This document shows positions 23,514 to 60,975 of a DNA stretch of 64,000 bases, one piece after another. A program made the position numbers and the translations under genes. Location of the stretch: the NCBI GenBank assembly GCA_964607825.1, contig CAZSNA010000003.1, positions 552-64,551 of the forward strand. Direction: 5' to 3'. Below the pieces are notes generated by a model. That model was given only the letters and a program-made list of their open reading frames with translations. It made no database searches and was not told the origin of the DNA. Position 1 is the first letter of the stretch. Each line of letters starts with the position of its first letter. This DNA is from an uncultured Fibrobacteraceae bacterium. Its GTDB lineage: Bacteria; Krumholzibacteriota; Krumholzibacteriia; LZORAL124-64-63.

Positions 23514-23905
23514 TGAAGCCCTCCTCCCCCACTGCTTCGGTACTGGCCCGGTTGAAAGCCAGCATGTCGCCCTATGAAGCTTGGAGACGGGCTCTGAAAA
23601 CCATCATGAGCTATTTTACTCCCGATTGCAACAGGAATTTTCGCATCAGCTGTCAGGATATTCCTTACAAATTTGACAAGTACATAGACGACACCGAATC
23701 GCCGCCAGGAAAATTGAGAGATAAAAAGTCGAGTTTACATATCTTATATCCCCGGTTCCATCTCCGGGCCCACATGTGGTATACTTGTCTTCCCCGTCAT
23801 GGTCCACAGGTACAGGCACCCGAAGTAACCGCCAACGGGTGGACCGCTCTCGCCATCACTCACACTCACGCCGGCCCGTACGGCCGGAGAGAAGGGGCTT
23901 ACGCA

Positions 23906-26900
23906 ATGAAGAAGGTTCTTGCCGTCGTCCTGGCGCTGCTCATGTGCGCCGGCGCAAGTTTCGCGGGCCAGGTCACGCCCGGCCTCGACGCCTTGATGAA
24001 GACCATGGACGGTCGTGACGAGATCACCGTCCTCGTCGTGATGCGCGACCGCGTCGACATCGAGGCCCTCGACTGGGAGCTGAGGGACGCCAAGGCCTCC
24101 TTCGAGATCCGCCACGAGACCGTGGTCACCAGCCTGCGCGACAAGGCCGCCGCCACACAGGCCGGCCTGCTCGCCGACCTGGAAGCCGACAAGGCCGGCG
24201 GAGTCGTCAAGGGCTACACGCCCCACTGGCTGATCAACGCCGTCGTCGTGCGCACCACCGTGGACGACGTGCCCCGGCTGGCCGCCCGCGACGACGTGGA
24301 CGTGGTCGAGCCCGACCTGAGGGTCGAGCTGATCGAGCCCGTCGGCGAGGGCCGGTCCAAGGGCCGCGCAGCCAAGGGCATCGGCACCGCGCCCGGCGTG
24401 GAGGACGTCGGCGCCCGCCGCGTCTGGGAAGAGCTGGGCATCGACGGCACCGGCGCCGTGGTCGGCGTGCTGGATACGGGTGTCGACGGGGCCCACGCAG
24501 CCCTGAGCGGTTCGTACCGCGGCAACCACGGCGCGCCCGACAGCGAGTGCTGGATCGACGCCGCCGGCCTCGGCGACTCGACCCCCGTGGATCAGCACTA
24601 CCACGGCACCCACGTCATGGGCACCATCTGCGGCCTCGCGGCCGACGACACCATCGGCGTGGCGCCCGGCGCCCACTGGATCGCGTCCAACGTGATCAAC
24701 ATGAGCGCCGGCGAAGCCTTCGACAACGCCGTGATCGCCTCGCTCGAGTTCATGACCGACCCCGACGGCGATCCCGGCACCACCGACGACGTCCCCGACG
24801 TCGTGCAGAACAGCTGGGGCGTCAACGAGGGCTTCACCGGCTACTACGACTGCGACTCGCGCTGGTGGACCGCCATCGACGCCTGCGAGGCGGCGGGCGT
24901 GGTCCTGACCTGGTCGGCGGGCAACGAGGGGTCCTCGAGCGGCACCATGCGCAGCCCGGCCGATCGCGCCGACAGCATCTTCAACACCTTCAGCGTCGGC
25001 TCGACCAACCACACGGCGCCTTACGCGGTGAGCGGCTTCTCCAGCCGCGGGCCCTCCGGCTGCGGCGGCACCTACGACATGAAGCCCGAGATCATGGCCC
25101 CCGGCGACGACATCTACAGCGCCGAGCCCGGCGGTACCTACCAGTACCTCAGCGGTACGTCCATGGCCGGCCCGCACATCGCGGGCGTGGTGGCGCTGAT
25201 GCGCTCCGCCAACCCCGGCCTCGACGTCGAGACCATCAAGCAGATCCTGATGGACACGGCCATCGACATGGGCGTCGCCGGCGAGGACAACGACCACGGC
25301 CACGGCTTCGTGGACGGTTACGCCGCCGTGCTGGCGGTCATGTCCGGCTACGGCACCATCGAGGGCACCGTGACCGACCTGTCCTCCGGCCTGCCCATCG
25401 CCGGCGCGTCGGTCACCCTGAGCATGGTCGGCGAGGCGGACCGCGTCCGCACCACCGATGCGAGCGGCTACTACTCGACCATGCTGCCCCAGGGCGACTG
25501 GGACATCAGCGTGAGCGCCTTCGGCTACATCGACGACTCGGCCACCGCCGTGTCCGTGGTCGAGGATCTCACCACCACCCAGGACTTCGCCCTGACGACC
25601 GCCCCCTCGGCCCTGCTCAGCGGCTACGTCTACGACGACGAGGCCGCCCCGGTCGACGGCGCGGCGATCACGATCCTGAACACCCCGCTGGCTCCGGCCA
25701 CTTCCGGCGTCGACGGGTACTACGAGATCACCATGCCCACCGGCACGACCTACGACGTGCTGGCCTCGGCCTACGGCATGGGCAGCCAGCAGGTGGCCAT
25801 CGACTTCCAGGGCGCCACGACCCAGGACTTCACGCTGCCCCAGCTGGTCTTCGAGAACTTCGAGAGCAACTCCCTGGTGGTCTTCCCGTGGGAGACCAGC
25901 GGCAACGCCGACTGGTTCACCACCTCGGACGCCGCCTACGAGGGCCTGTACAGCGCCAAGTCCGGCAACATCACCCACAACGAGGTCTCGACGCTGTCGA
26001 TCACGATCGACGTGCTGGCGGCCGGCAACCTGGAGTTCTACTACAAGGTCTCGTCAGAGAGCGGCTGGGACTTCCTGCAGTTCTCCATCGACGGCGCCCA
26101 GCAGGACTCGTGGTCCGGCGAGATCGACTGGACCCTGGCCAGCTACCCGGTGACCTCCGGCTCGCACACCTTCGCCTGGACCTATGACAAGGACGGATCG
26201 GTGGACTCGGGCGACGACTGCGCCTGGATCGACTACGTGGTCTTCCCGACCATCGCCGAGCCGACCTACCCCGAGATGACGGTCGCCCCGGCGAGCCTGG
26301 AGGAGTGGCTGCAGCCCGACGAGACGTCGACGCAGTACATCACCCTGGACAACACCGGCGAGGGCGAGCTGATCTACAACGTGAGCGTCGACCTCGACCC
26401 GCTGCCCGCCAAGGCGTCCGCCCCCGCGGAGGACGTGTACGTGGCCAAGGACGAGCCCGACACCCGCGTCGGCCAGTCGCCCCTGCTGGGCTCCGGCGGG
26501 CCCGACGCCGCCGACTACACCTGGATCGACAGCAACGAGTTCGGCGGACCGGTCTTCGACTGGGTGGAGATCAACACCATCGGCACGGCCGTGTCGCTGA
26601 CCGACGACTCCTACTCGGCGGACCTGGCCCTGGGCTTCGACTTCACCTTCTACGGCAACGTGTTCAGCACGGTGAAGATCTGCTCCAACGGTTTCCTGTC
26701 CTTCGACGGCACGGCGACCGACTACTCCAACGACCCGATGCCGAACACGGTCGCGCCCAACAACATGATCGCCCTGTTCTGGGACGACCTGAACCCCAAC
26801 GACGGCGGCAGCATCTACTACTACGCAGACGCGGCCAACTCGCGGTTCATCGTCGAGTACGAGCAGGTTCCGCACTACAGCTACAGCGGGACCGGCACGT

Positions 26901-27580
26901 ACACCATGCAGGCGATCCTGAACGCCGACGGCTCCATCGTGTGCCAGTACCTCGACATGGTGGGCGACATCGACTCGGCGACGCTCGGCATCGAGAACTC
27001 GGGCGGCGACATCGGCCTCCAGGTCGTCTACAACGCGGCCTACATGGAGAACAGTCTCGCCATCCTGTACAGCTTCGTGCCCCCGCCGCCGCCCTGGCTG
27101 GTCGTGACGCCCACCAGCGGCACGATCCCGGGCATGACGAGCGGCACGCAGCTCGAGGTGTTCTTCGACGCCACCGGCCTGGCCGTGGGCGTGTACAACG
27201 GCACCGTGACCATCGGCAGCAACGACCCGGACAACTCCCAGGTCGTGGTGCCGGTCACGCTGAACGTCAGCTCGGGCACCTCCGCCGACCAGCTGCCCAG
27301 CAGCTTCGAGCTCGGCGCGGCCTATCCCAACCCGTTCAACCCCTCGACCAAGATCGCCTACGCGGTCCCGGCCGGCGGCGGACGGGTGGAGCTGAACATC
27401 TACGACCTGTCGGGACGCCTCGTGCGCACCCTCGTCTCGGGCCATCGTCCGGCCGGCGACCACACCGTGGTCTGGACGGGCGACGACGAGCAGGGACGCC
27501 GCATGGCTTCCGGCACGTACTTCTACCGCCTGCAGGCGAACGACGTCGACACCACCCGCAAGATGGTGCTGGTGAAGTAG
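23906..27580 (+). CDS. S8 subtilisin-like serine peptidase with carboxypeptidase-regulatory-like domains and a T9SS type-A C-terminal sorting domain
   Basis: Signal peptide, the S8 triad motifs 'DTGVDGAHAAL', 'HGTHVMGTI' and 'GTSMAGPHIAGV', and a C-terminal 'YPNPFNPSTKIAY...GTYFYRLQANDVDTTRKMVLVK'. Confidence 0.85.
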   Translation: MKKVLAVVLALLMCAGASFAGQVTPGLDALMKTMDGRDEITVLVVMRDRVDIEALDWELRDAKASFEIRHETVVTSLRDKAAATQAGLLADLEADKAGGVVKGYTPHWLINAVVVRTTVDDVPRLAARDDVDVVEPDLRVELIEPVGEGRSKGRAAKGIGTAPGVEDVGARRVWEELGIDGTGAVVGVLDTGVDGAHAALSGSYRGNHGAPDSECWIDAAGLGDSTPVDQHYHGTHVMGTICGLAADDTIGVAPGAHWIASNVINMSAGEAFDNAVIASLEFMTDPDGDPGTTDDVPDVVQNSWGVNEGFTGYYDCDSRWWTAIDACEAAGVVLTWSAGNEGSSSGTMRSPADRADSIFNTFSVGSTNHTAPYAVSGFSSRGPSGCGGTYDMKPEIMAPGDDIYSAEPGGTYQYLSGTSMAGPHIAGVVALMRSANPGLDVETIKQILMDTAIDMGVAGEDNDHGHGFVDGYAAVLAVMSGYGTIEGTVTDLSSGLPIAGASVTLSMVGEADRVRTTDASGYYSTMLPQGDWDISVSAFGYIDDSATAVSVVEDLTTTQDFALTTAPSALLSGYVYDDEAAPVDGAAITILNTPLAPATSGVDGYYEITMPTGTTYDVLASAYGMGSQQVAIDFQGATTQDFTLPQLVFENFESNSLVVFPWETSGNADWFTTSDAAYEGLYSAKSGNITHNEVSTLSITIDVLAAGNLEFYYKVSSESGWDFLQFSIDGAQQDSWSGEIDWTLASYPVTSGSHTFAWTYDKDGSVDSGDDCAWIDYVVFPTIAEPTYPEMTVAPASLEEWLQPDETSTQYITLDNTGEGELIYNVSVDLDPLPAKASAPAEDVYVAKDEPDTRVGQSPLLGSGGPDAADYTWIDSNEFGGPVFDWVEINTIGTAVSLTDDSYSADLALGFDFTFYGNVFSTVKICSNGFLSFDGTATDYSNDPMPNTVAPNNMIALFWDDLNPNDGGSIYYYADAANSRFIVEYEQVPHYSYSGTGTYTMQAILNADGSIVCQYLDMVGDIDSATLGIENSGGDIGLQVVYNAAYMENSLAILYSFVPPPPPWLVVTPTSGTIPGMTSGTQLEVFFDATGLAVGVYNGTVTIGSNDPDNSQVVVPVTLNVSSGTSADQLPSSFELGAAYPNPFNPSTKIAYAVPAGGGRVELNIYDLSGRLVRTLVSGHRPAGDHTVVWTGDDEQGRRMASGTYFYRLQANDVDTTRKMVLVK

Positions 27581-28484: not shown

Positions 28485-28793
28485 GCTCTCCGCTCCCGGT
28501 CGAGGTGTGGTTCCATACGCCCCTGTCAGACGCTGAAACCGCCGTGCGTGTTGCACGGCGAGCATGCCCGCGACGGCCCGGCGCCGCAAGGACGTATCCC
28601 GCAGGGCGTTTTGCCGTCCCGGCGCGTCGGATTCTGCACGACCCGCCGTCGCGGCGCTCCCGGCGACGCGGAAGCGGCGCGGCGCCCCGTTCCCCGCCGT
28701 TCCCGGGCGTTCCCTCCGGCTCCGTCGGCACGTCCGGGCGCGCTCCATGCATCCCCGCGGTCACTCCCGGGGATGTGGGAGGAGGAGGGTCGA

Positions 28794-37997: not shown

Positions 37998-38025
37998 CGG
38001 AACTTCTCCCTAGCGACGGCCGCGG

Positions 38026-39522: not shown

Positions 39523-39552
39523 CGAGTCGCTCCTCTCGGAATGAATCCGGGC

Positions 39553-41748: not shown

Positions 41749-41764
41749 CGTGTTCCCGTCTCCC

Positions 41765-42624: not shown

Positions 42625-42627
42625 GTC

Positions 42628-43218: not shown

Positions 43219-43254
43219 GACCGCTCCCTGAAACGTTGACCTTGTCGTCCGCGG

Positions 43255-44304
43255 CTAGCCGAGCTCGCCGCTCACCATCATCCAGACGCCGGATCCCAGG
43301 ACGCAGATCAGCGTCAGGGGGATCAGCACCTTCCAGCACGTGTGCATCAGCTGGTCGACGCGCAGGCGGGGCAGCGTCCAGCGCACCCACATCTGCAGCA
43401 GCACCAGCAGCACGGCCTTGAGCACGAAGACCAGGCCGGGCAGCAACACCGGGCCGGCGACCGGATACCAGCCGCCCAGGAACACCGCCGTGGCGACGCA
43501 GGAGACCAGGAACAGGTTCGCGTACTCCGCCAGGAAGAAGAAGGCGAAGCGCATGCCCGTGTACTCGACGTGGTAGCCGGCCACCAGTTCGGACTCGGTC
43601 TCCGGCATGTCGAAGGGGCCGCGGTTCACCTCGGCGATGGACGCGATGAAGTAGACCACGAAGGCGACGAACAGGAACGGGTCGTGCAGCAGGTTCCAGT
43701 TCCAGATGCCGCCCTGCTGGTTGATCACGATGTCGTTCATGTTCAGCGAACCGGTCAGCATGACGACCGGGATGCAGGCCAGGGCCAGCGGGATCTCGTA
43801 GCTGACCATCTGGGCCGCGCCGCGCGCCGCGCCGTAGAGCGCCCACTTGTTGTTGGACGCCCAGCCCGCCATGAGGATGCCCGCCACCGCGCCGCTGCTG
43901 ACGGCGAAGATGTAGAACAGCCCCAGGTCCAGGTCCGAGGCGATGAAGCCGGGCGCGAAGGGGATCGCGGCCCAGGCCAGCAGCGAGCCGATGAAGATCA
44001 CCAGGGGCGCCAGCATGAACAGCGGCTTGTCCGCGTCGGCGGGGATGATGTCCTCCTTGCCGAGGATCTTCACCATGTCCGCCACCGGCTGCAGCACGCC
44101 GTGGAAGCGGCCCACGCGCATGGGGCCGTAGCGGCTCTGGATGAAGCCGGCCACCTTGCGCTCGGCCCAGGTGAAGACGATGGCGCACAGGGCCATCACG
44201 AGCGACATGGCCAGGGCCATCGTCAACCCGCCGACGATGAGCGTCGTCTGCGGGGACATGCCGTCGCCGAAGATCTGTCCGAAGAGGTCGGTGATGACTT
44301 CCAT
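43255..44304 (-). CDS. nuoH: NADH-quinone oxidoreductase subunit H
   Basis: 349 aa, NuoH/ND1-like. Confidence 0.9.
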   Translation of the reverse strand: MEVITDLFGQIFGDGMSPQTTLIVGGLTMALAMSLVMALCAIVFTWAERKVAGFIQSRYGPMRVGRFHGVLQPVADMVKILGKEDIIPADADKPLFMLAPLVIFIGSLLAWAAIPFAPGFIASDLDLGLFYIFAVSSGAVAGILMAGWASNNKWALYGAARGAAQMVSYEIPLALACIPVVMLTGSLNMNDIVINQQGGIWNWNLLHDPFLFVAFVVYFIASIAEVNRGPFDMPETESELVAGYHVEYTGMRFAFFFLAEYANLFLVSCVATAVFLGGWYPVAGPVLLPGLVFVLKAVLLVLLQMWVRWTLPRLRVDQLMHTCWKVLIPLTLICVLGSGVWMMVSGELG

Positions 44305-44306
44305 GG

Positions 44307-45473
44307 CTACCTGTCAATCTCCCCGAGAACGATGTCCAGCGAACCCACCGCGGCCACGAGGTCGGAAATCATCATTCCGGGTCCGACCTTCTCCAGCACG
44401 TGGAGGTTCGAGAATGACGGCGACCGCGTCTTGTTGCGGAAGGGCTTGCCGCCCCCGTCCGCGAAGAGGTGGAAGCCGATCTCGCCCTTGCTGCTCTCCG
44501 TCCGGGTGTACAGGGAGCCCTGGGGCGGCTTGACGGTCTTCTTCAGCTGGTCGGTCATGATCGGGCCCTCGGGCAGCCCGTCCACGGCCTGGCGCACGAT
44601 GCGGCAGGACTCGTACATCTCCCTCACGCGCACCATGTAGCGGTCCCAGCAGTCGCCGATGGTCCCCTTCTCCCCCTCGCCGTAGGGGATGTCGAACTCG
44701 AAGCGGTCGTAGATCGAGTAGGGGTCGTCCTTGCGGCAGTCGAAGGGCACGCCGGCGCCGCGCAGCACCGGGCCGGTGCAGCCGTAGGCGTTGCAGTCGG
44801 CGGCGTCGATCACGCCCACGTCGGCCAGGCGCTCGATGAAGATCTTGTTGTACGAGAGCAGCGTGTTGTACTCGTCGATCTTCTGCTCCATGATGTTGAC
44901 GATGTCGAGCACGTCCTCGACGAAGCCGTCGTAGGCGTCGTAGCGCAGGCCGCCGATGTCGAAGTAGTTGTAGAGCATGCGGCCGCCGCTGAGGCGCTCG
45001 AAGATGTTCAGGATCTCCTCGCGCTCGCGGAAGCAGTAGAGCAGCGGCGTCCAGGCGCCCATGTCCAGGCCGAAGGTGCCCAGGGCGATGAGGTGGCTGG
45101 CGATCCGCTGCAGCTCCGCGCAGATCACGCGGATGTGCTCGGCGCGCTCGGGCACCTCGACGTCCAGCATGTTCTCCACGGCCACCGCGTAGCCGAAGTT
45201 CATGTTCATGGGCGCCAGGTAGTCGAAGCGGTCGGTGTAGACCATCCACTGGCGGTAGTCGCAGCCCTCGGCGATCTTCTCGGCGCAGCGGTGCAGGTAG
45301 CCGAGGTAGGGCGTGACCTTGCTGACGATCTCGCCGTCGGTCTCCACCAGCAGTCGCAGCACGCCGTGGGTGGCCGGGTGCTGGGGCCCCATGTTGATCT
45401 CGAGCAGCTCGGAGTGGAAGTCGCGGGCTTCGTCCTGGCCGGACCAGCCGTGGGCGACGACGGGATCGCTCAT
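44307..45473 (-). CDS. nuoD: NADH-quinone oxidoreductase subunit D
   Basis: '[19 protein letters not shown]' is the NuoD/49-kDa signature. Confidence 0.9.
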
Positions 45474-46129
45474 GACTCACCTCCGGGCTTCTCGTCGGTA
45501 GAAACCTTGCGGGCTTCGGGCGGCGGCACGACGGCGGCGTCCTCGCCCCACTTGGCTTCGGCGTAGGACTTGCCCTCCATGGGCACGCCCTGCCACTCGC
45601 CGGGCATGACGTAGTCCTTGCGCAGGGGGTGGCCCTCCCAGGCGTCGTCCAGCAGGATGCGGCGCAGGTCCGGGTGGCCGGTGAAGCGGACGCCCACCAG
45701 GTCCCAGGCCTCGCGCTCGTGCCAGGCGGCGGTGGGCCACACCGCGGAGACCGTCGGCACCTCGGGGGCGCTGCGCGGCACGCGCGTGAAGAGGCAGAAC
45801 TTGTGGCCGTGGCGATGCGAGTAGAGGGCGTAGGCCACGCCCAGGTCGCCCTCGCCGACGCGGTCGCTGGTCTCGGGCCTGCCGAGCTCGTCGTAGCCGA
45901 GGATGGCGACGCTCTTGCCCTTGCCGCTGTCGTCGTAGCCGTCCCAGTCCAGGCCGGTCAGGCACATCAGCAGGTCGAAGTCGAGCGCGTCCTCGTCGCG
46001 CAGCGTCTGCGCGATCTCGGCGATGCGCGACGCGGCGACCTGCGCGCCCTGCTCGTGGGTGTCCACGAACTCGAGCACGTCCTCGCCGAACCGCTCACGC
46101 AACAGGTCGTGGATGGCATTGGCTTCCAT
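45470..46129 (-). CDS. nuoC: NADH-quinone oxidoreductase subunit C
   Basis: About 220 aa, 30-kDa subunit-like. Start at '[10 protein letters not shown]'; the upstream extension is Arg-rich junk. Confidence 0.8.
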
Positions 46130-46137
46130 GTCGTCCC

Positions 46138-46767
46138 TCAGCGTTTGACGTAGGGGATCTTCTTGGCGTAGTCCGCCACCCACTTGGGGGGCTTGAACTT
46201 GCCCTTGCGACCGCGGATCACGTCCTGGAGGCGCATCAGGCCGTCCAGCAGCACCTCGGGGCGCGGCGGGCAGCCGGGGATGTACACGTCCACGGGCACC
46301 ATCAGGTCGACGCCCTTGACCACGTGGTAGCCGTACTTGAAGTACGGACCGCCGCCGATGGCGCAGCTGCCCATGGCCACGACCCACTTGGGCTCGGGCA
46401 TCTGGTCGTAGATGCGGCGCAGGCGCTCGGCCATCTTGGCGGTGACGGTGCCCGAGACGATCATCAGGTCGGCCTGGCGCGGCGTGGCGCGGAAGGCGCC
46501 GGCGCCGAAGCGGTCGATGTCGTAGCGGGTGGCCGACGCGGCCATCATCTCGATGGCGCAGCAGGCCAGGCCGAAGGTCACCGGCCAGATGCTCGACAGG
46601 CGGGCCCAGTTGAAGAGCTCGTCGACGGTGGTCAGGATGAAGTTCTTCGAGTCGGTCTGGGCGAGACGCTCGAAGTCCTCGTCCAGCTTGAAGTCGAGCA
46701 TGCGCTCGCGCGCGGGATCGTATCCCTCGGGCGGCGTGGTGGACTCGACGTAGTTCCTGCGGCTCAT
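46138..46767 (-). CDS. nuoB: NADH-quinone oxidoreductase subunit B
   Basis: '[10 protein letters not shown]', 'GSCAIGGGP' and 'IPGCPPRP' are the N2 cluster ligand motifs. Confidence 0.9.
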
Positions 46768-47213
46768 TCCCCGCTCACCTCCGCCCCGTCGCGCTTGATC
46801 AGGCCCTTGACCCAGTCGAGATCGCCCTTGGCCCAGATGTAGGCCAGGCCCACGGCCAGGATGCCGAGGAACAGGGCCATCTCCACGAACAGCAGCCCGC
46901 CGATGGCCGGGAACAGCGGCTTGAACACCACGGCCCACGGGTAGATGAAGACCACTTCCACATCGAAGACGATGAAGAACAGCGCGATCAGGTAGAAGCG
47001 GATATTGAAACGCACCCACGACGATCCGCGCGGCAGCTCGCCGCACTCGTAGGTCACCTGCTTGGCCGCGCTCGGCGCGTGCGGCCGCACCAGCTTCGCG
47101 ATCCCCAGCGCCAGGTTGGCGAAGAAGATCCCGAACAGGACGAACAGCAGGACCGTCGTGTAATTGGCGTGGAGCCCCGTGGGAACGGTGGCCAGGATGG
47201 GCAGAAGACTCAT
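46764..47213 (-). CDS. nuoA: NADH-quinone oxidoreductase subunit A
   Basis: 149 aa, three transmembrane segments, 'YECGELP' motif and an ATGA overlap with nuoB. Confidence 0.85.
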
Positions 47214-47447
47214 CGGAATGCCGGCCCCCATGGCGTTGAGTGATGGGATGGCTCGGAACGGAATCCACCGGGAAGCGCGCGTCCGCGGCGCGGTTCCCGC
47301 CGCGAAAATCGCATCCGGACAAATACAGGCATCAGGGCGTGCCGTGTCAAGAAGCATGTGCCGGACATGGAGGTGGCGCGCAGGCGTCCGGTGTGGGAAA
47401 GTCGGGCCCATACAGGTTCATTCATACCCGTTCGTCGGAGGAATCCC

Positions 47448-49268: not shown

Positions 49269-50357
49269 ATGAAGCGTCTTGCCTCGATCGCCCAGATCGC
49301 CCTCTTCGCCGTCCTTGTCCCGGCCTCGGCCGCGCCCGTCGCCGCCGAGCCGCTGACCAACCTGTTCATGCTCCACCATTCCACCGGACGCAACGTCATC
49401 GAGGAAGGCGACGTGCGCGGCTGGATCGACACCCACAACCTGTCCGAGGGCGCGGCCTTCGAGTTCTGGGACCACGACTACAACCACATCGGCCTGACCG
49501 GCCCCGACGGGACCAAGCTGGAGACGTCGTACGGCATCCCAGACGACAACACCGACCCCGACGGCCTGCTCACCCTGTGGACCACGCCCAACGACGCCCG
49601 CGACCAGATCCTCGCCAACCACGAGGTCATCGCCTTCAAGTCCTGCTACCCCGCCTCGGACATCGAGAGCGACACGGAGCTCGAGACGCGCAAGGCCTGG
49701 TACCTGGCCATGCGCGACGTCTTCGACCAGCACCCGGACAAGGTGTTCGTGGTCATGTCGCAGCCGCCGCTGCACCGGCTCAACACGAACAAGGACGCGG
49801 CCGACCGCGCCCGCGCCTTCGCGAACTGGCTCAAGTCGGACGCGTACCTCGCGGGCCACGACAACGTGGTGTGCCTCGACTTCTTCGACCAGTTCGCCGC
49901 GCCCGATGACGGCGCCGACACGGCGAACATGCTGCGCTGGGAGTACGAGCGCAGCCACTACAGTTCCGACTCGCACCCGAACACCCACGCCAACGAGATC
50001 GTGGGTCCGTGGTTCGCGGCGAAGCTGGTGGACGCGGCGTCGGCCCTCGACGCGGCCCTGACCGATGCGGGCGCGCCCCGTCTCGGCCTGGCCCTCGGCG
50101 CCCACCCGAACCCGTTCAACCCGCGGACGACCCTGTCGTTCACCCTGTCGGAGCCCGGCCCGGTCTCCCTGGCCGTCTACGACCTGACCGGCGCCCGCGT
50201 CGCCCTGCTGGCCGACCGCGTCTTCCCCGCCGGCGACCACGCCGTGAGCTGGGACGGCGGCGACGCCACCGGCCGCCCCCTCCCGTCCGGCGTCTACCTG
50301 GCGCGCGCGGCCACGCGCGACGCCGTGCAGACCCGCAGGATGACCCTCGTGCGCTGA
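49269..50357 (+). CDS. Secreted protein with a T9SS type-A C-terminal sorting domain and an N-terminal roughly 280-aa domain of unknown function
   Basis: Signal peptide and a C-terminal 'HPNPFNPRTTLSF...GVYLARAATRDAVQTRRMTLVR'. Confidence 0.75.
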   Translation: MKRLASIAQIALFAVLVPASAAPVAAEPLTNLFMLHHSTGRNVIEEGDVRGWIDTHNLSEGAAFEFWDHDYNHIGLTGPDGTKLETSYGIPDDNTDPDGLLTLWTTPNDARDQILANHEVIAFKSCYPASDIESDTELETRKAWYLAMRDVFDQHPDKVFVVMSQPPLHRLNTNKDAADRARAFANWLKSDAYLAGHDNVVCLDFFDQFAAPDDGADTANMLRWEYERSHYSSDSHPNTHANEIVGPWFAAKLVDAASALDAALTDAGAPRLGLALGAHPNPFNPRTTLSFTLSEPGPVSLAVYDLTGARVALLADRVFPAGDHAVSWDGGDATGRPLPSGVYLARAATRDAVQTRRMTLVR

Positions 50358-55293: not shown

Positions 55294-56919
55294 CTAGTAG
55301 GGCAGATCGGTCTGCAGGCTGTCCACCTGCGCCTCCGGCAACCGGAACTGCTCCGGCCGCAACCGCAGCACGTCGCGCAGCCAGTCCTCGGGATAGCCGA
55401 CCTCCTCGGCGTGCCCGTCGACGCGCACGTACCCGTCGTTGTAGCGGGTGATCAGCGCGCCGGCCAGCTCGCGCCAGCGCTCGAAGACCCGCTCGCCGGT
55501 CGACACCGAGTAGGTGGTGAGGTACTGCGCGGCCAGGGCGGGGTCGCGCTCGAACAGGTCGGCCGCGGTGCGCTCCACCGCGGGCGCCATGGCGTCGAGG
55601 TCCGCCTCCAGCTCCGACTGGGCGGCGCGGATGTCGTCGATCATGTAGTCGTACTTCAGCGCGGCGTAGTTGGCGACCAGGTTGAACATCCACCAGGCCG
55701 AGTCCCAGGAGAACTCGGAGAGACGGCCGGTGGCGAAGGACGGCGGGATGTCCGTGACGCCGGCGTAGAGCGGGGTCCAGACCGTGGTGTAGGTGTCGTC
55801 GACGCCGTACCAGAGGCAGCCGCCGACCGGGTCCGGCAGGTCGCGGCGGGACTGGGCGATCATGGAGAAGCCGGTCTGCTGGGTGGAGATGGGGCGCTCC
55901 CAGGTGTACTTGGCGCCGTCGAGTTCGAAGCCCATCGGGCGCCAGCGGTTGGGATTGCCGAAGGGGCCGGCGTCCACGCCGGCGGTCATGTCGAAGTCGG
56001 TGTCCTCGTAGTGGTCGCGCATCAGGGCGCGCACGTCGGCGAGCGAGAGCTTCGCGTCGGGCTTCACCCACAGGGGGTAGTCGACGGTGCCGGGGGCGCC
56101 GCGGTGGAAGTCGGGCGACAGCTCGAGCGACGGCGCGGCGCGGCGCAGCAGGCTCCACACGCGCGTCGAGGTGTAGCGCTTCTTCTGGGGCGTGGCGGGA
56201 TCGTAGACGTCGCGGAAGTTGAAGGGCGCGCCCGCGTCGGGATCGTACCAGCCGTTGGCGATCGCCACCTCGAACACGTTGTCCGAGTAGAGCGTGTGCT
56301 TGTCGTCCGTGGGAAACTCGCCGATGCGCGCCATGTTCGCGTGGGCGCTGACCAGGCCGTCGGGCACCCGGCGCGCCACCCAGACCGCGCCGATCTCGTC
56401 GGCGCCGCAGCCGATCATCTCCAGGATCCACACCTCGCGCGGGTCGCAGATGGAGAACGACTCGCCGGTGGAACGATACCCGTGCTCCTCGACCAGCGAG
56501 GTGATCACCTCCACCGCCTCGCGCGCCGTGCGCGAGCGCTCCAGGGCGAGCTTCATCAGCGTCCAGTAGTGCAGCAGCGCCGAGGTGTTCTGCAGCTCGA
56601 GCCGCCCGTCGAAGGTGGTCTCGCCGATGGCCACCTGGTGCTCGTTCATCAGGTTGACGTAGGCGTAGGTGTGCGGCACCTGGGGGATCTCGCCGTGGAT
56701 GTTCCCGTCCCAGTGTCGGATCACGTACATCGACCCCGGCTCGTGGTCGGCGGCGTCGTTGCGGCGCAGCGTGGCGTGGAAGACGCCGTCGCAGGTGTAG
56801 GTGACGTAGGCCGAGCCGTCGACCGTGGCGCCGGGGGTGACCAGGAGGTTGGTGCAGGCGGCGGCGGGGGCGGCCAGGGCGAGCAGGGCGAGAGCGAGAC
56901 CCGGGATGGCTCGAATCAT
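55294..56919 (-). CDS. C69-family dipeptidase (Ntn-hydrolase, N-terminal Cys nucleophile after the signal peptide)
   Basis: Signal peptide 'LALALLALAAPAAA' followed by 'CTNLLV', with a peptidase C69-like body. Confidence 0.75.
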   Translation of the reverse strand: MIRAIPGLALALLALAAPAAACTNLLVTPGATVDGSAYVTYTCDGVFHATLRRNDAADHEPGSMYVIRHWDGNIHGEIPQVPHTYAYVNLMNEHQVAIGETTFDGRLELQNTSALLHYWTLMKLALERSRTAREAVEVITSLVEEHGYRSTGESFSICDPREVWILEMIGCGADEIGAVWVARRVPDGLVSAHANMARIGEFPTDDKHTLYSDNVFEVAIANGWYDPDAGAPFNFRDVYDPATPQKKRYTSTRVWSLLRRAAPSLELSPDFHRGAPGTVDYPLWVKPDAKLSLADVRALMRDHYEDTDFDMTAGVDAGPFGNPNRWRPMGFELDGAKYTWERPISTQQTGFSMIAQSRRDLPDPVGGCLWYGVDDTYTTVWTPLYAGVTDIPPSFATGRLSEFSWDSAWWMFNLVANYAALKYDYMIDDIRAAQSELEADLDAMAPAVERTAADLFERDPALAAQYLTTYSVSTGERVFERWRELAGALITRYNDGYVRVDGHAEEVGYPEDWLRDVLRLRPEQFRLPEAQVDSLQTDLPY

Positions 56920-57518
56920 GGACGTTCTTCCTCCGTCGTGGGTTTCAGGGGACGAATCAGGCCCAGAAGAGGACGGTAGTCGTGGTCGTCGGCCGAACGC
57001 AAGGCGGATATGTAGACGCCGCGATCGAGATTCCAATCCAGCATGGCGCATCCGTTGTAGTGGAGCAGCAGATTCGCAGCCAACCGCGCATGTCGCCCGT
57101 TTCCGTTCGAGAACGGATGGACCTGCGCCAAGCGGTGATGGAAACGGATCGCCCGCTCGGTCCAGGGATACGATTCGAACTCGTTCCAGCTCATCACGTC
57201 TGCGCAGAGTAGTGCGAGGCGCTCGGGGATCGATCTCCAATCGACGCCGATGTTGAGATCGTGCGTCCGGAAGACGCCCGCCCACGTCCAGACCCGGTCG
57301 AACATCATACGATGGAGCCTGCAGAGTCCCGGCGGCGTCAACAGCGATCGCCGCAGGCGCCGATCGTTGACGGCCGCGACCCGTGCGGACAGGATGTTCT
57401 CCGCCTCGACCTCGTTCAACTCGGTACGCGACGTGATGTGCGGTATCAACCCGGACAGGTCGTCACGATGGATGGGTGTCGTTCCCGGCTCCGTATCGCG
57501 CACTACTCCGATTCCCAT
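56916..57518 (-). CDS. Fic/DOC-family protein ('mobile mystery protein B' type)
   Basis: Fic motif 'HPFSNGNGRHARL', and a 16-nt overlap with the upstream helix-turn-helix gene. Confidence 0.75.
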   Translation of the reverse strand: MGIGVVRDTEPGTTPIHRDDLSGLIPHITSRTELNEVEAENILSARVAAVNDRRLRRSLLTPPGLCRLHRMMFDRVWTWAGVFRTHDLNIGVDWRSIPERLALLCADVMSWNEFESYPWTERAIRFHHRLAQVHPFSNGNGRHARLAANLLLHYNGCAMLDWNLDRGVYISALRSADDHDYRPLLGLIRPLKPTTEEERP

Positions 57519-57973
57519 AGCTTGGCGGGGGTGTCCTGCAGCAACCGGGCCGTCAGTTCCTCGCGCATGCGCGCGAGCTCCGCATCGTCCACTCCCTGGT
57601 CCTCGAGCTCCATGGTGGCCGAAACGTCGCGGATGCGCTTCTCGGCCAGCCGGGCGGCGCGGCGTCTGACCAGTTCGACATAGGAGCCGCTCTCGGGTAT
57701 CAAGACGTATTCCAGGCGACACCCCAACTGGCTCGCCACTCGGTTCATGGTTTTCAGGGTCACAGCCCCGTCCGCCTCAGCCTTCTCGATCCGCTGCAGC
57801 GACTGGGGCTTGATGTCGAGCCGTTTCGCCAGCTGGGCCTGCGTCATGCCCAGGATCTCCCGAACATGCTTCATCCAACCGATCGGGGGCCGATCGAGAG
57901 CATGCGAACCGATCAGCGGGGAAATCCTTCTATCCATTTGCATTCGCGCCAGTTGCAATGATTTACGCAGCAT
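57503..57973 (-). CDS. XRE-type helix-turn-helix protein ('mobile mystery protein A' type)
   Basis: 'ILGMTQAQLAKRLDIKPQSLQRIE' forms the helix-turn-helix. RBS GGAGG sits 9 nt upstream of the ATG. Confidence 0.7.
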   Translation of the reverse strand: MLRKSLQLARMQMDRRISPLIGSHALDRPPIGWMKHVREILGMTQAQLAKRLDIKPQSLQRIEKAEADGAVTLKTMNRVASQLGCRLEYVLIPESGSYVELVRRRAARLAEKRIRDVSATMELEDQGVDDAELARMREELTARLLQDTPAKLWESE

Positions 57974-58089
57974 GGGGCAGCCCTCCAATCAGCATTTGTG
58001 CTGTTTCACACCCCTAAAAAACAAGCATATATGCTGCCACTGTCAAGATATAATTCGCATTTATACTGTAATTTAACCGTGCAGCTGTG

Positions 58090-58134: not shown

Positions 58135-60774
58135 TCATTTCACCATCGTCATCTTCCGGATCAGCTCCTCGTCGTCGGTGCGCAGCACGTAGAAGTAGGC
58201 GCCCGAGGACACCCGCCGTCCGCGATCGTCCGCGCCGTCCCAGACGATCTCGTGTTCGCCGGCCGGACGCGTCGCCGAGAGCAGGTCGCGCACGAGGCGG
58301 CCGCGCTCGTCGTAGACCTTCAGGCTCACACGGCCGGCGGCGGCCAGGGCGTAGGCGATCTTCGTGGTCGGGTTGAAGGGGTTGGGCGAGTTCTGCGCCA
58401 GGCGCGTGACCCGCGGCGTGTCGTCGATGCCGGTCGCCACCACCTCGGTCGACGCGCTGGCCATGGCCACCGGCGCGGCGCGGCCCTGGTTGACCCAGGC
58501 GTCGTAGAGCTGCTGCCCGGCCGCGACGTCCGGATCGTTGTCGCGCAGGAACTCGATGAACTCCTTGCTGGTGGTCTGGTAGTACAGGGTGACCACGACG
58601 CTGGTCGCGTCGCCCGGCAGCTCGTAGACCGTCTCGTCCCAGTACTGACCGTCGGCATAGCTGTAGGCCACCGGCGGCGACTGGATCGTCGTGAAGGCGG
58701 CGTTGGTGAAGCCGCGCGGCGGGATGCGGTTGTCGAAGTAGACGGTGTCGTTGAGCGCCATGTTGAACGACGGCCCCGACGACACGCCGAGGATCCCCGC
58801 CAGACGCTCCGACCGGCCGGGCTTGATCTCGTAGATCTTCGCGTCCTCGTCGTGGGTGAGCACGCCGGTCGAGGCCTCGTAGGCGCCCGACTCGTACACC
58901 GGCTGCATGGCGTCGTCGTAGGCCTTCACGTTCAGCCAGACGCGGCGGCCCTCCGGATAGCCCGAGGGCAGCTTGTGGCCGGTCTCGTTGGTCACGGTGA
59001 CCCGGACGGCGGGCACGCCGCTGCCGACGATCTCCTCCACCTCCAGCGAGGCCGCCCGCTGCAGCATGCTGATGGCCCGGGCCTTGCCGCCGTCCAGGGC
59101 GGCCTGGTCGACCTCGAGGGGATAGTAGTCGGCCAGGATGTCGGGGATGAAGTGGTTGCCGCCGGTGAAGTCGTGCACGCCGATGTCGTCGCGGGTCGGG
59201 CCGCCGGCGGCGCCCTTGCCGGACTCGTCGGGCATGTGGCAGTCCTGGCAGGTCGACACGATGCCGTCGGGCTTGTTGCCGGCGAACTGCGGCGCGTAGA
59301 CGCCCGTCGCGGCGTACTCGCTCTCGCTCCACTCGCTGAAGGTGCGCTCCACCGGGAACATGTTGCGCCGGTCGCTGTCGGGGTGGGGCGCGTCGAGGGC
59401 CTGCACGACGTACTCGTCGGGCGTGGCGCCGGCGACGAAGACCGGGTTGCTCACGTCGTGGCAGGTGCCGCAGATCCCGGAGCTGAGGGTGAAGTCCGAG
59501 TGGGCGAACTGGTGGTCGGCCTGGGCGTCGGCGTAGGGGCCGCGCCGCAGGGGATCGGGATCGGTGACGAACTGGCCGTTGGCGTTGTCCAGCGGGATGG
59601 ACTCCAGCTCGGCCAGGATGTCCTCGTCGCCGGGCGGGTTGTCGCCGACCTGGTAGTGCACGTCCACGGCGCTGTGGCAGAAGTCGCACTGCACGCCCTG
59701 GCGGTCCTTGGCGTTGATCATGCCGCCGGTGGTGTCGGTGGAGCGGCCCTCCTGCCAGCCGCCCGGCGAATGGCAGCGCAGGCAGAGGTCGCCGCCGCCC
59801 GGGGCCGAGGCGTCGGTGATGCGCACCAGGGACAGGTAGAGCGGGTCGCGCATGGTGTTGCCCATCATGCTGCCGCGCCAGTTGTACCAGGGCTCGGTGA
59901 GGGTGCTGTGGTCGCCGTGGCAGGTGGCGCAGGTCTCGGCCGGGTCCTCGAGGACGGCGCCCTCGAGCGGCTGGGTGCCGGGCATCTCGAAGTCGCGCAG
60001 CGAGGTCGGGACGATGGCGCCGGCGACGGGATCGATGGTGAACGTCGCCGGGCTCTCGCCGTAGCCCTCGTTGCCCGCGTAGTCGTAGGCCTCGACCCGG
60101 ATCAGGGCGTTCGGGCCGGGATAGTTGTGCACGAACCAGTCCCACGCGCCGTCGTTGGGCAGGTCGACGGCGATGGGCTGCCACGACGCGCCCCCGTCCT
60201 CGCTGAACTCGATCTCGATCCTGGCGACGCCCGTGTCGTCGGTGGCGGTCCAGGAGATGGTCGTGACGGTGTTGGCCCCGAAGACCTCGCCGCCGAGCGG
60301 CGCCAGCAGGGTGACGACCGGGTCGACCTCGTCGGGTGCGCCCTCCGGCGTGAGGTAGGGGTCGAGGTCGGCCGTGTCCACGTTCAGGACCAGCCCCACG
60401 TTGTCCGCCTTCAGCCCGGGGAAGGTGGGCGTGTTGGCGTAGTTGACGACGTCCGTGATCTCGACGAGGTTGCTGAAGCCGTCATTGTCGGAGTCGTCGT
60501 TCTCGATGGCGAGGATCGCCTCCGAGTTGCTCAGCCCGTTGTTGAGCCCCACCTCGATGCCGACGCCGTAGGGGTTGCGCGGTCCGCCGCCGTCGAAGTC
60601 GAAGTGGCAGAGGCCGCAGTGGGACGTGCTGCTGGGCACGTCGTCGAGCTGGGTGAACTCGGCCACGGGATAGGTCGTGAAGAAGGTGCGGCGGATGGGA
60701 TTGCGGGCGAGGGCGGACGCGGCCAGGGCGACCACGAGCACGAACGCGACGGAGACGGCGAGGGGGCGACGCAT
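58135..60774 (-). CDS. Six-heme c-type cytochrome with a T9SS type-A C-terminal sorting domain (secreted, 879 aa)
   Basis: Six CxxCH motifs (CGLCH, CATCH, CLRCH, CDFCH, CGTCH, CQDCH), a signal peptide, and a C-terminal 'SPNPFNPTTKIAY...GAYFYVLRTDDEELIRKMTMVK'. Confidence 0.8.
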   Translation of the reverse strand: MRRPLAVSVAFVLVVALAASALARNPIRRTFFTTYPVAEFTQLDDVPSSTSHCGLCHFDFDGGGPRNPYGVGIEVGLNNGLSNSEAILAIENDDSDNDGFSNLVEITDVVNYANTPTFPGLKADNVGLVLNVDTADLDPYLTPEGAPDEVDPVVTLLAPLGGEVFGANTVTTISWTATDDTGVARIEIEFSEDGGASWQPIAVDLPNDGAWDWFVHNYPGPNALIRVEAYDYAGNEGYGESPATFTIDPVAGAIVPTSLRDFEMPGTQPLEGAVLEDPAETCATCHGDHSTLTEPWYNWRGSMMGNTMRDPLYLSLVRITDASAPGGGDLCLRCHSPGGWQEGRSTDTTGGMINAKDRQGVQCDFCHSAVDVHYQVGDNPPGDEDILAELESIPLDNANGQFVTDPDPLRRGPYADAQADHQFAHSDFTLSSGICGTCHDVSNPVFVAGATPDEYVVQALDAPHPDSDRRNMFPVERTFSEWSESEYAATGVYAPQFAGNKPDGIVSTCQDCHMPDESGKGAAGGPTRDDIGVHDFTGGNHFIPDILADYYPLEVDQAALDGGKARAISMLQRAASLEVEEIVGSGVPAVRVTVTNETGHKLPSGYPEGRRVWLNVKAYDDAMQPVYESGAYEASTGVLTHDEDAKIYEIKPGRSERLAGILGVSSGPSFNMALNDTVYFDNRIPPRGFTNAAFTTIQSPPVAYSYADGQYWDETVYELPGDATSVVVTLYYQTTSKEFIEFLRDNDPDVAAGQQLYDAWVNQGRAAPVAMASASTEVVATGIDDTPRVTRLAQNSPNPFNPTTKIAYALAAAGRVSLKVYDERGRLVRDLLSATRPAGEHEIVWDGADDRGRRVSSGAYFYVLRTDDEELIRKMTMVK

Positions 60775-60975
60775 GACGATCTCCTCCGGTGGGGACGGAT
60801 ATTGAGATGTGCTTCAACCGGATCCCATTGTCCCATAAATCGGGGAGTGTTTTCAACTTGATGACACTAAAAAATCAATTATGACATCCATTCGCAAATC
60901 GCGCCGCGTTTCGTCCGGACTGGATTATCGGGCCGTGACCGTCCATGATGGAGGCGACCAGCGAAAGGACCCCCG

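Follow-up and report, generated by a model that had tools for sequence, protein, structure and literature searches.

Known cargo of type IX secretion systems (T9SS) encompasses hydrolases, adhesins, motility proteins and similar proteins, and the surface-exposed multiheme proteins MtrC and OmcA of Shewanella, which contain beta-sandwich domains, are lipoproteins whose export runs through the type II system. T9SS type A cargo, such as RgpB of P. gingivalis and the KLIKK peptidases of T. forsythia, combines a Sec leader with a C-terminal beta-sandwich of about seven strands, in which a glycine of the beta3-beta4 loop and a lysine of the last strand are functionally important in P. gingivalis (PMC11285876). 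Cytochrome c552 of Thermochromatium tepidum (PDB 5ZE8) is a 435-aa chain in which a five-heme helical cap is followed by a beta-sandwich, and its function is not itself established (PMC11976967). The same cap-and-stem architecture is found in MccSep, or ExtKL (GSU2937-2936), of Geobacter sulfurreducens (PDB 9WT8), a multiheme selenoprotein polysulfide reductase in which the stem loop makes up the active site above heme 2 (bioRxiv 10.1101/2025.11.18.688581). Members of the PHC family (sPHC and lPHC of cable bacteria, Gsu2801 of Geobacter) share the ExtKL/c552 fold and occur as small and large variants with accessory domains (PMC11976967).

A six-heme c-type cytochrome displaying this fold in its predicted structure was encoded in the window, i.e., the whole stretch of 64,000 nucleotides that was analyzed. 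Judging from its sequence, the cytochrome is probably an exported protein that most likely stays on the outer surface or is released from it, where it would act as an extracellular oxidoreductase or redox partner rather than as a mineral wire.

Gene and heme content

The cytochrome gene was complete (Table 1), and an identical protein was recorded on 6 contigs. Its six CxxCH motifs (C53, C282, C331, C363, C435 and C509) held all 12 cysteines of the protein and were invariant in an alignment of 49 relatives. Among 20,000 shuffles of the protein, 0.3% contained one CxxCH motif and none contained two (chance expectation about 0.003 motifs per shuffle), which bears out the heme count given in the earlier note. 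The Sec signal peptide proposed there was likewise found on reading the N-terminus: by inspection, MRRPLAVSVAFVLVVALAASALA followed by RNP resembled a Sec/SPase I leader without a lipobox cysteine. With several CxxCH motifs behind a Sec-type leader, the protein is a multiheme c-type cytochrome. No Ccm or Ccs genes for cytochrome c maturation were found within the window. The hairpin directly downstream of the stop codon was not called by a strict terminator scan because it is followed by just four T.

Table 1. Coordinates of the cytochrome gene, its domains and flanking signals, and of two window proteins with the same C-terminal domain (CTD)
Feature	Position in window	Strand	Basis
Six-heme c-type cytochrome gene, complete, 879 aa	58135..60774 (stop codon included)	(-)	ORF list; GC3 0.97
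Sec-type signal peptide, residues 1-23, MRRPLAVSVAFVLVVALAASALA	60706..60774	(-)	Read from sequence by eye; family conservation starts at A23-R24-x-P26
N-terminal mono-heme module, residues 24-150, with HCGLCH (heme motif 1, 60604-60618) and acidic DSDNDG	60325..60705	(-)	H52, C53, C56, H57 invariant
Ig-like domain Big_7, residues 152-250	60025..60321	(-)	PF17957, 29.1 bits vs cut-off 24.1
Alpha-helical pentaheme domain, residues 255-545	59140..60012	(-)	Heme motifs, core AF2 model, Foldseek
Heme motifs 2-6	59917-59931, 59770-59784, 59674-59688, 59458-59472, 59236-59250	(-)	Sequence
Beta-sandwich stem domain, residues 546-785	58420..59139	(-)	Invariant residues in 77 diverse relatives
Conserved stem loop NETGHKLPSGYPEGRRVW	58936-58989	(-)	Alignment with MccSep and c552 loops
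C-terminal sorting domain, T9SS type A-like/FlgD_ig-like, residues 793-879	58138..58398	(-)	Profile and fold matches
Shine-Dalgarno-like GGAGGAG, 7 nt 5' of ATG	60781..60787	(-)	Sequence reading
Sigma-70-like promoter match TTGAAA-18-GACAAT with TG	60827..60856	(-)	Consensus match only
GC-rich terminator-like hairpin, then UUUU, directly 3' of stop codon	58089..58121	(-)	Folding: MFE -28.1 kcal/mol, z -4.8, 0/200 shuffles as stable
Unrelated S8 subtilase with two CarboxypepD_reg domains and the same CTD	23552..27580	(+)	Local CTD HMM 2.4e-35; TIGR04183 30.2 vs 23
Unrelated 362-aa protein with the same CTD	49269..50357	(+)	Local CTD HMM 1.4e-28; TIGR04183 24.0 vs 23

Domain architecture and fold

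The N-terminal mono-heme module, missing from core-only relatives, matched the N-terminal part of NF041762 (GEGP diheme protein) with a score below threshold, and the Big_7 domain behind it was all-beta in the AF2 model (pLDDT about 80-90). When AF2 was supplied with 49 close homologues, the heme domain stayed below pLDDT 50, a problem cured by a diverse alignment of 77 sequences, from which the core was modeled at pLDDT 95 and pTM 0.93. Foldseek comparison of this core to the PDB returned 5ze8 as the only significant match (E 2.5e-16, target-normalised TM 0.72, 17% identity), with no other match below 1e-3. As modeled, the core has the fold of the c552 and ExtKL/MccSep (PHC) superfamily, in which a helical cap with five hemes precedes an Ig-like beta-sandwich stem. 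With about 530 aa, it fits the 'large' PHC type by size. Truncated-hemoglobin domains, rather than T9SS or dockerin tails, are found on the described PHC members.

The first three heme motifs of c552 and its H-x-x-P-T-G-x-P loop (HAMPTGAP) aligned with the cytochrome, whereas c552 lacks the N-terminal heme module, the Ig domain and the C-terminal sorting domain, and shows a histidine in place of the invariant Met304 and an alanine in place of Tyr606. The stem-loop signature of the superfamily, G-H-x-x-P-x-G-x-P, was present as GHKLPSGYP, aligned with GHSIPDGUP of MccSep. Tyr606 thereby occupies the position of the catalytic Sec325 of MccSep, flanked by Lys601, Glu608, Arg610 and Arg611. The heme-ligating Cys239 of MccSep has no counterpart, because every cysteine of the cytochrome lies in a CxxCH motif. 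The MccSep equivalog model NF040886 matched residues 501-629 weakly (31.6 bits vs cut-off 250), and the marks of that polysulfide reductase (Sec or Cys in the loop, Cys as distal ligand of heme 2, and an NF040886 score to match) were absent. MccSep is periplasmic and, unlike the cytochrome, has no sorting tail.

Stem residues N596, H600, G605, E608, R610, W613, D681, R683 and Y706 were invariant across the 77 diverse relatives. Candidate distal heme ligands M304, H421, H534 and H600 were invariant in the wide alignment, and H52 and H464 among close relatives; together they could satisfy all six hemes and leave no open catalytic heme. His464 was rejected as distal ligand of heme 1, as it did not co-occur cleanly with the N-terminal module. 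Position 671 was also considered as a heme ligand; it was His in 71 of the 77 sequences, but some members had Asn, Phe or Tyr there, the window clade having Asn, and it is therefore no obligatory ligand.

C-terminal sorting domain and probable export

The C-terminal domain scored below the cut-offs of both curated T9SS models (TIGR04183, 20.4 bits vs 23; PF18962, 15 vs 27) and passed that of FlgD_ig (PF13860, residues 810-862, 43.8 vs 27). It formed a confident beta-sandwich in the model (pLDDT 83-93), and Foldseek matched it to PorU and PorZ chains and to FlgD. Profile comparison by HHalign of 16 CTDs of the cytochrome type to 15 CTDs of Bacteroidota orthologues gave a probability of 98.65% (E 5e-16, 80 columns). 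The glycine of the YDxxGR loop between beta3 and beta4 and the C-terminal lysine of the last strand, as in T9SS type A cargo, were both kept: D822 and G825 were invariant in VYDERGRLV, and K874 in RKMTMVK was at least 90% conserved. Two unrelated proteins of the window carried the same domain and passed TIGR04183 (Table 1), as retrieved with a local HMM built from cytochrome-family CTDs. The earlier note had called the tail a canonical T9SS type A domain; homology to type A domains stands, with siblings in the window that reach TIGR04183, but 'canonical' is too strong for a tail whose own scores fall short of both cut-offs. Taken as sequence evidence, these results support reading the tail as a sorting domain of the T9SS type A-like kind, and the cytochrome would most likely be exported past the periplasm.

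None of the T9SS core genes (sprA/sov, porV, porU, porK/L/M/N) was detected among the 46 window ORFs by Pfam or NCBIfam scan, so that for this lineage T9SS export is what we infer. A tblastn search of the PorV/PorQ-family protein of locus L088 against 1.4 Mb of the loci compared returned its self-match only. The lineage lies outside Bacteroidota, and T9SS machinery is undocumented there; according to a review, the system possibly occurs in several non-Bacteroidota FCB phyla, a list that does not include the phylum of the cytochrome. Nothing in the searchable literature connected type IX secretion to Krumholzibacteriota or Latescibacteria, described an experiment with a member of the cytochrome family or reported a cytochrome as T9SS cargo, the papers mentioning both T9SS and c-type cytochromes dealing with other topics according to their titles and abstracts.

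Distribution of the family and tail exchange

The protein belongs, as a typical representative, to an uncharacterised family of redox proteins that is large (more than 2,000 relatives) and strongly conserved. Full-length relatives at 56-62% identity were found in Krumholzibacteriota and Latescibacterota MAGs, and full-length Eisenbacteria relatives were 58% identical in one Eiseniibacteriota genome and about 45% identical in the remaining MAGs of that group. NCBI gives orthologues with about 56-59% identity the name T9SS type A. Long motifs away from the hemes were invariant even at about 40% identity, a pattern that, read from sequence, is typical of enzymes.

The same core was followed by different tails in different phyla. 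A Flavobacteriaceae MAG, Tamlana flava and Carboxylicivirga caseinilyticus encoded the five-heme core with T9SS CTDs of 34-56 bits, far over the cut-off, and orthologues from five further cultured Flavobacteriaceae species, named T9SS type A, carried PF18962. At the Carboxylicivirga locus, the cytochrome gene was followed by an S8 peptidase gene with a CTD and then by a PorV/PorQ-family gene, an arrangement that lends T9SS-dependent secretion its closest indirect support. In Phycisphaerae, a GC-type dockerin took the place of the CTD (NF041540, 36.8 and 48 bits), and dockerin-like tails were found on the core elsewhere too. This swapping of tails on one core argues for surface display, and bacteria of several phyla probably place family members on or outside the cell surface. 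The surface or extracellular location suggested in the earlier note is thus supported by the type A-like tail, the CTD siblings in the window, the CTDs of orthologues and the tail swap.

Proposed function and alternative explanations

In the mechanism proposed, Sec would carry the apoprotein to the periplasm, where the hemes would be attached, and the folded holoprotein would cross the outer membrane via a T9SS-type pathway recognising the C-terminal beta-sandwich of about 87 aa. Electrons would then pass along the heme chain between a partner in the envelope and a site at the conserved stem loop GHKLPSGYPEGRR. The strict conservation of this loop, with Tyr606 and its flanking residues, favors an extracellular oxidoreductase with a defined substrate, or a specific redox partner, and makes a generic mineral 'wire' less likely. 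The substrate would be defined, and probably anionic or soluble; alternatively, the cytochrome may be the specific redox partner of other surface enzymes. The choice of enzyme over wire rests on conservation and on the analogy to MccSep, both catalytic residues of which are missing in the cytochrome.

Instead of acting on a defined substrate, the cytochrome might, as suggested in the earlier note, be a conduit at the cell surface for extracellular electron transfer; insoluble acceptors such as Fe(III)/Mn(IV) oxides or electrodes would be served, similar to MtrC/OmcA, by a heme chain passing respiratory electrons outward. A multiheme cytochrome that carries an export tag could in principle pass electrons to minerals; ExtKL, encoded in a Geobacter gene cluster for an outer-membrane conduit, belongs to the same superfamily, for which a relationship to archaeal cytochrome nanowires has been stated (PMC11976967). 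An NADH:quinone oxidoreductase was also encoded within the window, indicating that the organism respires. PF22113 (MtrC/MtrF domains II/IV) matched the cytochrome at the borderline (33 bits vs cut-off 30), but the protein has six hemes rather than ten and lacks the MtrC fold, no MtrC, OmcA or OmcS-type structure being among its Foldseek matches. Neither an MtrAB-like porin-cytochrome partner nor a periplasmic multiheme partner nor a conserved neighbor was found near the gene or at the loci compared; clustering of the ORFs of 75 loci gave no conserved neighbors across phyla, and two lipoproteins adjoining the cytochrome gene in related MAGs had no family match. The conservation of the protein is far above what we would expect for conduit cytochromes, and ExtKL itself proved to be a periplasmic polysulfide reductase. 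The family is also common in marine Flavobacteriaceae and Phycisphaerae, which to our knowledge are mostly aerobic heterotrophs and not known as metal reducers. A role as mineral conduit is therefore considered unlikely.

The Planctomycetota loci raise another option, in which the cytochrome would be an acceptor or relay for other surface-anchored oxidoreductases, e.g., PQQ-dependent sugar dehydrogenases, linking extracellular oxidation to the cell or to other enzymes. At eight Phycisphaerae/Planctomycetota loci, one gene family was located 0.4-5.8 kb downstream of the cytochrome gene (overlapping it in L070), as part of co-oriented gene runs that share one ...GCP tail. The two scanned members of this family were GSDH-type dehydrogenases (PF07995), and the run of L056 also held an alpha-amylase and a beta-propeller/lactonase-like protein. 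This association was, however, restricted to 8 of about 50 planctomycete loci, and was missing around the window gene and at the Latescibacterota, Eisenbacteria and Flavobacteriaceae loci. We know of no biochemical link between the GSDH neighbor and the cytochrome, and such a relay function appears quite doubtful.

In a further alternative, the protein would stay in the periplasm, its C-terminal FlgD-like Ig domain being purely structural and no secretion signal. FlgD_ig is the best Pfam match of a tail that both T9SS models score below cut-off, and the relatives c552 and MccSep are periplasmic. Against this, the tail is placed at the extreme C-terminus and ends in K-x-x-x-x-K, a secreted-type subtilase carries it as well, true CTDs are its homologues (98.65%), and relatives from other phyla have different anchoring modules in its place behind the same core. 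The protein has no FlgD N-terminal domain and the gene has non-flagellar neighbors; only the Ig-like part resembles the FlgD hook cap, the rest of the protein being a cytochrome. A periplasmic location thus seems very improbable.

The resemblance to the hydroxylamine-oxidoreductase/octaheme family (HAO, OTR, ONR) proposed in the earlier note came from an impression of the segment after CATCH, and although the MccSep authors superimpose the five-heme arrangement of the superfamily on the heme core of unrelated multiheme enzymes, membership in that family has almost nothing to commend it: the protein has six hemes and not eight, no CxxCK motif and no extra cysteine, its only significant solved-structure match was the pentaheme c552, with no HAO, OTR or NrfA structure among the significant Foldseek matches, and a PDB profile search placed NrfA at E 0.3. 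The segment, described as Cys-rich and as lying between hemes 3 and 4, is not Cys-rich and, CATCH being heme motif 2, is located between motifs 2 and 3.

Implications

As a wider and still tentative proposal, T9SS, and in Planctomycetota dockerin-type anchoring, may export assembled multiheme cytochromes, the family representing an unrecognised extracellular redox enzyme of anaerobic FCB candidate phyla, marine Flavobacteriaceae and Phycisphaerae. The Sec loop of the polysulfide reductase MccSep would be the origin of the active site of this enzyme, with Sec changed to Tyr and a His-to-Met ligand change compared to c552. The window locus itself is a modest result, as it encodes a typical family member. 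Orthologues are, however, found in cultured Flavobacteriaceae, a family that includes the T9SS model organism Flavobacterium johnsoniae, and the export route and substrate are therefore accessible to experiment. Public annotation of the family is limited to 'T9SS type A sorting domain-containing protein'. If the proposed export holds true, cofactor-loaded electron-transfer proteins would constitute a new class of T9SS cargo, and the system would be able to translocate a protein in the folded state, with five or six hemes covalently attached. Bacteria of the FCB group and Planctomycetota would then gain a redox capability at the cell surface that metabolic reconstructions have missed.

Gene and domain organization

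The cytochrome is encoded by ORF 58135-60774 on the minus strand (879 aa, to which residue numbers refer), with a GC3 of 0.97 matching the codon bias of the real genes of the window. Its six CxxCH motifs (C53, C282, C331, C363, C435 and C509), claimed in an earlier note on this DNA, were confirmed and account for every one of the twelve cysteines present; among 20,000 protein shuffles a single CxxCH appeared in 0.3% and two in none. The Sec signal peptide of that note was also upheld: the N-terminus, MRRPLAVSVAFVLVVALAASALA followed by RNP, looks on inspection like a Sec/SPase I-type leader lacking a lipobox cysteine. Its heme numbering required correction, since CATCH is the second motif and not the third, and the stretch that comes after CATCH is not Cys-rich as described there. 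A Shine-Dalgarno-like box precedes the ATG (see table) and a hairpin followed by UUUU lies directly 3' of the stop codon (-28 kcal/mol, z -4.8 by folding), so that the cytochrome looks like a free-standing gene. The identical protein was recorded on six contigs, including an NCBI contig of 87.7 kb.

Pfam models recognized Big_7 (residues 152-201) and FlgD_ig (residues 810-862, 43.8 bits against a cut-off of 27), together with matches driven by the heme motifs, to MtrC/MtrF II-IV (33 against 30) and Cytochrome_C554. With an alignment of 49 close homologues, AlphaFold2 gave good models of the flanking domains only; for the heme core, modelled as residues 245-790 from an alignment of 77 diverse relatives, it reached a pLDDT of 95 and a pTM of 0.93.

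Features of the cytochrome and of the window (nucleotide positions are those of the window, residues those of the cytochrome; the coordinates of all parts of the cytochrome were verified by translation)
Feature	Position	Strand	Details
Shine-Dalgarno-like GGAGGAG	7 nt 5' of cytochrome ATG	-	read from sequence
Leader	residues 1-23		Sec-type
Mono-heme module	residues 24-150		invariant HCGxCH and acidic DSDNDG motif
Ig domain	residues 152-250
Helical pentaheme domain	residues about 255-545
Beta-sandwich (stem)	residues about 546-785
C-terminal beta-sandwich (CTD)	residues 793-879
Omp85/POTRA proteins	5945-7603 and 10782-12098
OEP-HlyD-AcrB (RND) efflux operon	17452-23169	+
S8 subtilase with the same CTD	23552-27580	+	1342 aa; two CarboxypepD_reg, NIDO-like stretch; TIGR04183 30.2 bits (pass)
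NADH:quinone oxidoreductase operon	36516-47411	-	subunits A, C, D, H, I, L, M, N recognized
Protein with the same CTD	49269-50357	+	362 aa; TIGR04183 24.0 bits (pass)
HTH_3 (XRE-type) and Fic, overlapping pair	56916-57988	-	directly downstream of cytochrome gene; also in Logan contigs

Fold of the heme core

The sole significant match of the full model among solved structures was the pentaheme cytochrome c552 of Thermochromatium tepidum (PDB 5ZE8; Foldseek, E 7.9e-10). The core, i.e., the five-heme domain and its beta-sandwich stem, matched it at E 2.5e-16 (TM 0.72 normalized to the target, 17% identity), the next match being irrelevant (5.6e-3). Profile searches of PDB sequences likewise retrieved c552, as well as recently added entries for MccSep (9WT8). 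Cytochrome c552, ExtKL and Gsu2801 of Geobacter, and cable-bacteria cytochromes form a single 'PHC' family (PMC11976967), in which ExtKL, a selenoprotein now called MccSep, is a homotetramer that reduces polysulfide in the periplasm and whose active site comprises heme 2 (His/Cys239 ligation) and selenocysteine 325 on an Ig-like stem loop (bioRxiv 10.1101/2025.11.18.688581).

In the alignment this stem loop, GHSIPDGUP in MccSep, corresponds to GHKLPSGYP in the cytochrome and HAMPTGAP in c552. Neither catalytic residue of MccSep was kept, since the cytochrome has no Cys outside its CxxCH motifs, and a MccSep-type enzyme was therefore rejected (NF040886 31.6 against 250). Across 77 relatives (about 37-88% identity), N596, H600, G605, E608, R610 and W613 were invariant and K601 (76/77), G609 (76/77) and R611 (74/77) nearly so, while position 606 was occupied by Tyr in 65, His in six and Phe in three.

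Candidate distal heme ligands M304, H421, H534 and H600 were invariant in the wide alignment, H52 and H464 among close relatives only. Met304, kept in 75 of the 77 relatives, lies in a GSMH motif and takes the place of a c552 His in the alignment; should it serve as a ligand, one of the hemes would be His/Met instead of bis-His, a ligation that raises the heme potential. Residue 671 (window 58760-58765 covers residues 671-672) is His in 71 of the 77 diverse relatives, Phe or Tyr in a few other family members, and Asn in the cytochrome and its four closest relatives, four of these five also having Met for Phe at the next position. These differences may reflect a substitution close to the hemes that is particular to this clade.

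C-terminal sorting domain

The earlier note had read the tail as a T9SS sorting domain, to be taken as simply an FlgD Ig-like domain should the T9SS models fail. In literal terms the models do fail, the tail scoring below both cut-offs (TIGR04183, 20.4 against 23; PF18962, 15 against 27). Five other results nevertheless argue for a type A-like sorting domain. Searched with an HMM derived from the CTDs of the cytochrome family, the window yielded matches in two unrelated ORFs (2e-35 and 1e-28), both passing TIGR04183; one looks like a typical secreted protease cargo, the other had no Pfam or NCBIfam family match outside its CTD, and a fourth protein with this type of CTD sits just past the window end. 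HHalign aligned a profile of 16 such CTDs end-to-end with that of 15 Bacteroidota orthologue CTDs (98.65%, E 5e-16). Also conserved were two residues reported to matter for function in P. gingivalis (PMC11285876), namely the YDxxGR-loop glycine and the last-strand lysine. Foldseek matched PorU and PorZ chains, along with FlgD, and orthologues at about 56-59% identity were named 'T9SS type A sorting domain-containing protein' by NCBI. Neither an FlgD N-terminal domain nor a flagellar context was present for the cytochrome.

Distribution of the family and exchange of tails

Scores were obtained for more than 2,000 homologues. The top 120 were full-length and 56-84% identical; those bearing names came from Krumholzibacteriota, Eiseniibacteriota and Latescibacterota MAGs, with Krumholzibacteriia MAGs as the closest named relatives among the matches listed. 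Three architectures were distinguished from a one-genome-per-species scan and a library of cluster representatives. The full form with CTD occurred in the Krumholzibacteriota, Eiseniibacteriota and Latescibacterota lineages (56-62% identity), and at about 45% in Eisenbacteria MAGs. The N-terminal module and core, without CTD, were found in Pontiella and other Kiritimatiellales, Sedimentisphaerales and Verrucomicrobia MAGs; for MAGs of Desulfobacterota and Binatia, matches likewise start upstream of the core, yet each ORF has only five CxxCH. The core alone (residues about 250-780, 41-47% identity) was encoded in dozens of MAGs of Phycisphaerae and other Planctomycetota. One Eisenbacteria MAG (L016, 9332-15263) carries tandem paralogues, a six-heme copy with a five-heme copy directly behind it, both ending in the same CTD-like sequence, which in the second is of FlgD_ig type.

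As assessed by reading C-termini and by profile scans of representatives, what comes after the core is the sorting or anchoring module in use in the respective lineage: a true T9SS CTD in a Flavobacteriaceae MAG (39.3 bits), a GC-type dockerin in Phycisphaerae (NF041540, 36.8 and 48 bits, checked in L029 and L056) and dockerin-like Asp-rich repeats in other lineages. With the Flavobacteriaceae protein as query, core and CTD were recovered together from cultured species, namely Aestuariivivens sediminis, A. sediminicola, Tamlana flava, Seonamhaeicola maritimus, Mangrovimonas futianensis, Aegicerativicinus sediminis and Carboxylicivirga caseinilyticus, each of these proteins having PF18962 and the NCBI name T9SS type A. 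The combination was present in Zixibacteria MAGs as well. In C. caseinilyticus (L088, 8001-13551), a five-heme cytochrome (CTD 56 bits), an S8 peptidase with T9SS CTD and a PorV/PorQ-family protein (NF033709, 179.7 bits) are encoded in this order, in what appears to be a compact cluster of cargo and shuttle genes of a cultured member of the Bacteroidota. The repeated gain of different surface-targeting tails by an orthologous core is the strongest argument here, drawn from sequence comparison, that the cytochrome would work outside the periplasm.

Genomic context

The neighborhood of the cytochrome comprised an RlmH-type methyltransferase, a PEGA-domain protein, two lipoproteins with no family match, a C69 peptidase, an amidohydrolase and an XRE-Fic pair resembling a toxin-antitoxin or regulatory module. 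Gene order was partly kept in a few related MAGs, and no neighbor was conserved across phyla among the compared loci. The oxidoreductase, efflux and Omp85/POTRA genes indicate a respiring diderm, and no T9SS component was encoded among the scanned ORFs of the window. The host is uncultured and high-GC (63-74% in 2-kb windows). A 589-aa ORF picked by length (27637-29468, plus strand; atypical GC3 of 0.79, no family match) is probably not real, and an ORF at 27660-28748 (minus strand) and a short plus-strand ORF ending in SWGAVKTMYR look like more plausible genes there.

On an Eiseniibacteriota chromosome (CP070702.1; L003, 1710-6559), a cluster of oxidative-stress genes (flavodiiron protein, FUR-family regulator, rubrerythrin, desulfoferrodoxin and rubredoxin-flavin reductase) is found about 3.4 kb upstream of the orthologue, with a 2-oxoacid:ferredoxin oxidoreductase pair in between; this proximity is probably a coincidence. 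Orthologues are also encoded on the chromosomes CP070677.1 and CP070631.1.

In eight of about 50 planctomycete loci (L029, L035, L037, L044, L056, L070, L028 and L080), one gene family was located 0.4-5.8 kb downstream of the cytochrome, overlapping it in L070. Its two scanned members are PQQ-type GSDH dehydrogenases (PF07995), and the family sits within co-oriented gene runs whose genes all end in GCP, the run in L056 also including an alpha-amylase and a beta-propeller/lactonase-like protein. Such runs may constitute a surface sugar-oxidizing module; the association is a clade-specific lead.

Proposed function and alternatives

Heme attachment is periplasmic, and the T9SS takes folded cargo over the outer membrane. 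In the working proposed here, the Sec-type leader would carry the protein to the periplasm, where hemes would be attached, the T9SS would carry the folded cytochrome across the outer membrane, and electrons would pass along the heme chain to or from a pocket under the GHKLPSGYPEGRR loop. Type A cargo of Bacteroidota is described as attached to anionic LPS at the surface of the cell (PMC9143113). Export of the cytochrome appears very probable, and the joint reading, in which a redox protein belonging to the c552/MccSep superfamily and equipped with a specific site is exported to the surface, is reasonably probable. An enzymatic role rather than that of a wire is an even call.

The extreme conservation of the GHKLPSGYPEGRR loop, taken with its Lys/Arg side chains and Tyr606, speaks for a substrate that is defined and probably anionic and against nonspecific mineral contact, and on this ground a mineral-directed conduit is considered unlikely. 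A role as redox partner of surface dehydrogenases, to which the planctomycete GSDH genes point, is more doubtful still because that association is specific to its clade. The sub-threshold T9SS scores and the passing FlgD_ig match would suit a protein that stays in the periplasm and has a tail of purely structural function, a reading made very improbable by the CTD shared with a secreted-type subtilase, the swapping of tails on an orthologous core and the lack of flagellar context. The HAO/octaheme likeness of the earlier note found no support, 5ZE8 being the sole significant structural match, and an HAO-like enzyme is scarcely credible.

Multiheme cytochromes together with T9SS, and type IX secretion in Krumholzibacteriota or Latescibacteria, were not found in the searchable literature; publications naming both T9SS and c-type cytochromes deal, by title and abstract, with other topics, and a review lists T9SS for some FCB phyla outside Bacteroidota as no more than a possibility. 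Public databases label members of the family solely by their tail. Given these automatic labels and literature negatives, the locus is an ordinary member of a large family, auto-annotated and never studied: cytochromes of the c552/MccSep fold are known, as are type A tails of the T9SS, and no description of the two combined was found. Most value would come from the cultured Flavobacteriaceae orthologues, which would allow testing.
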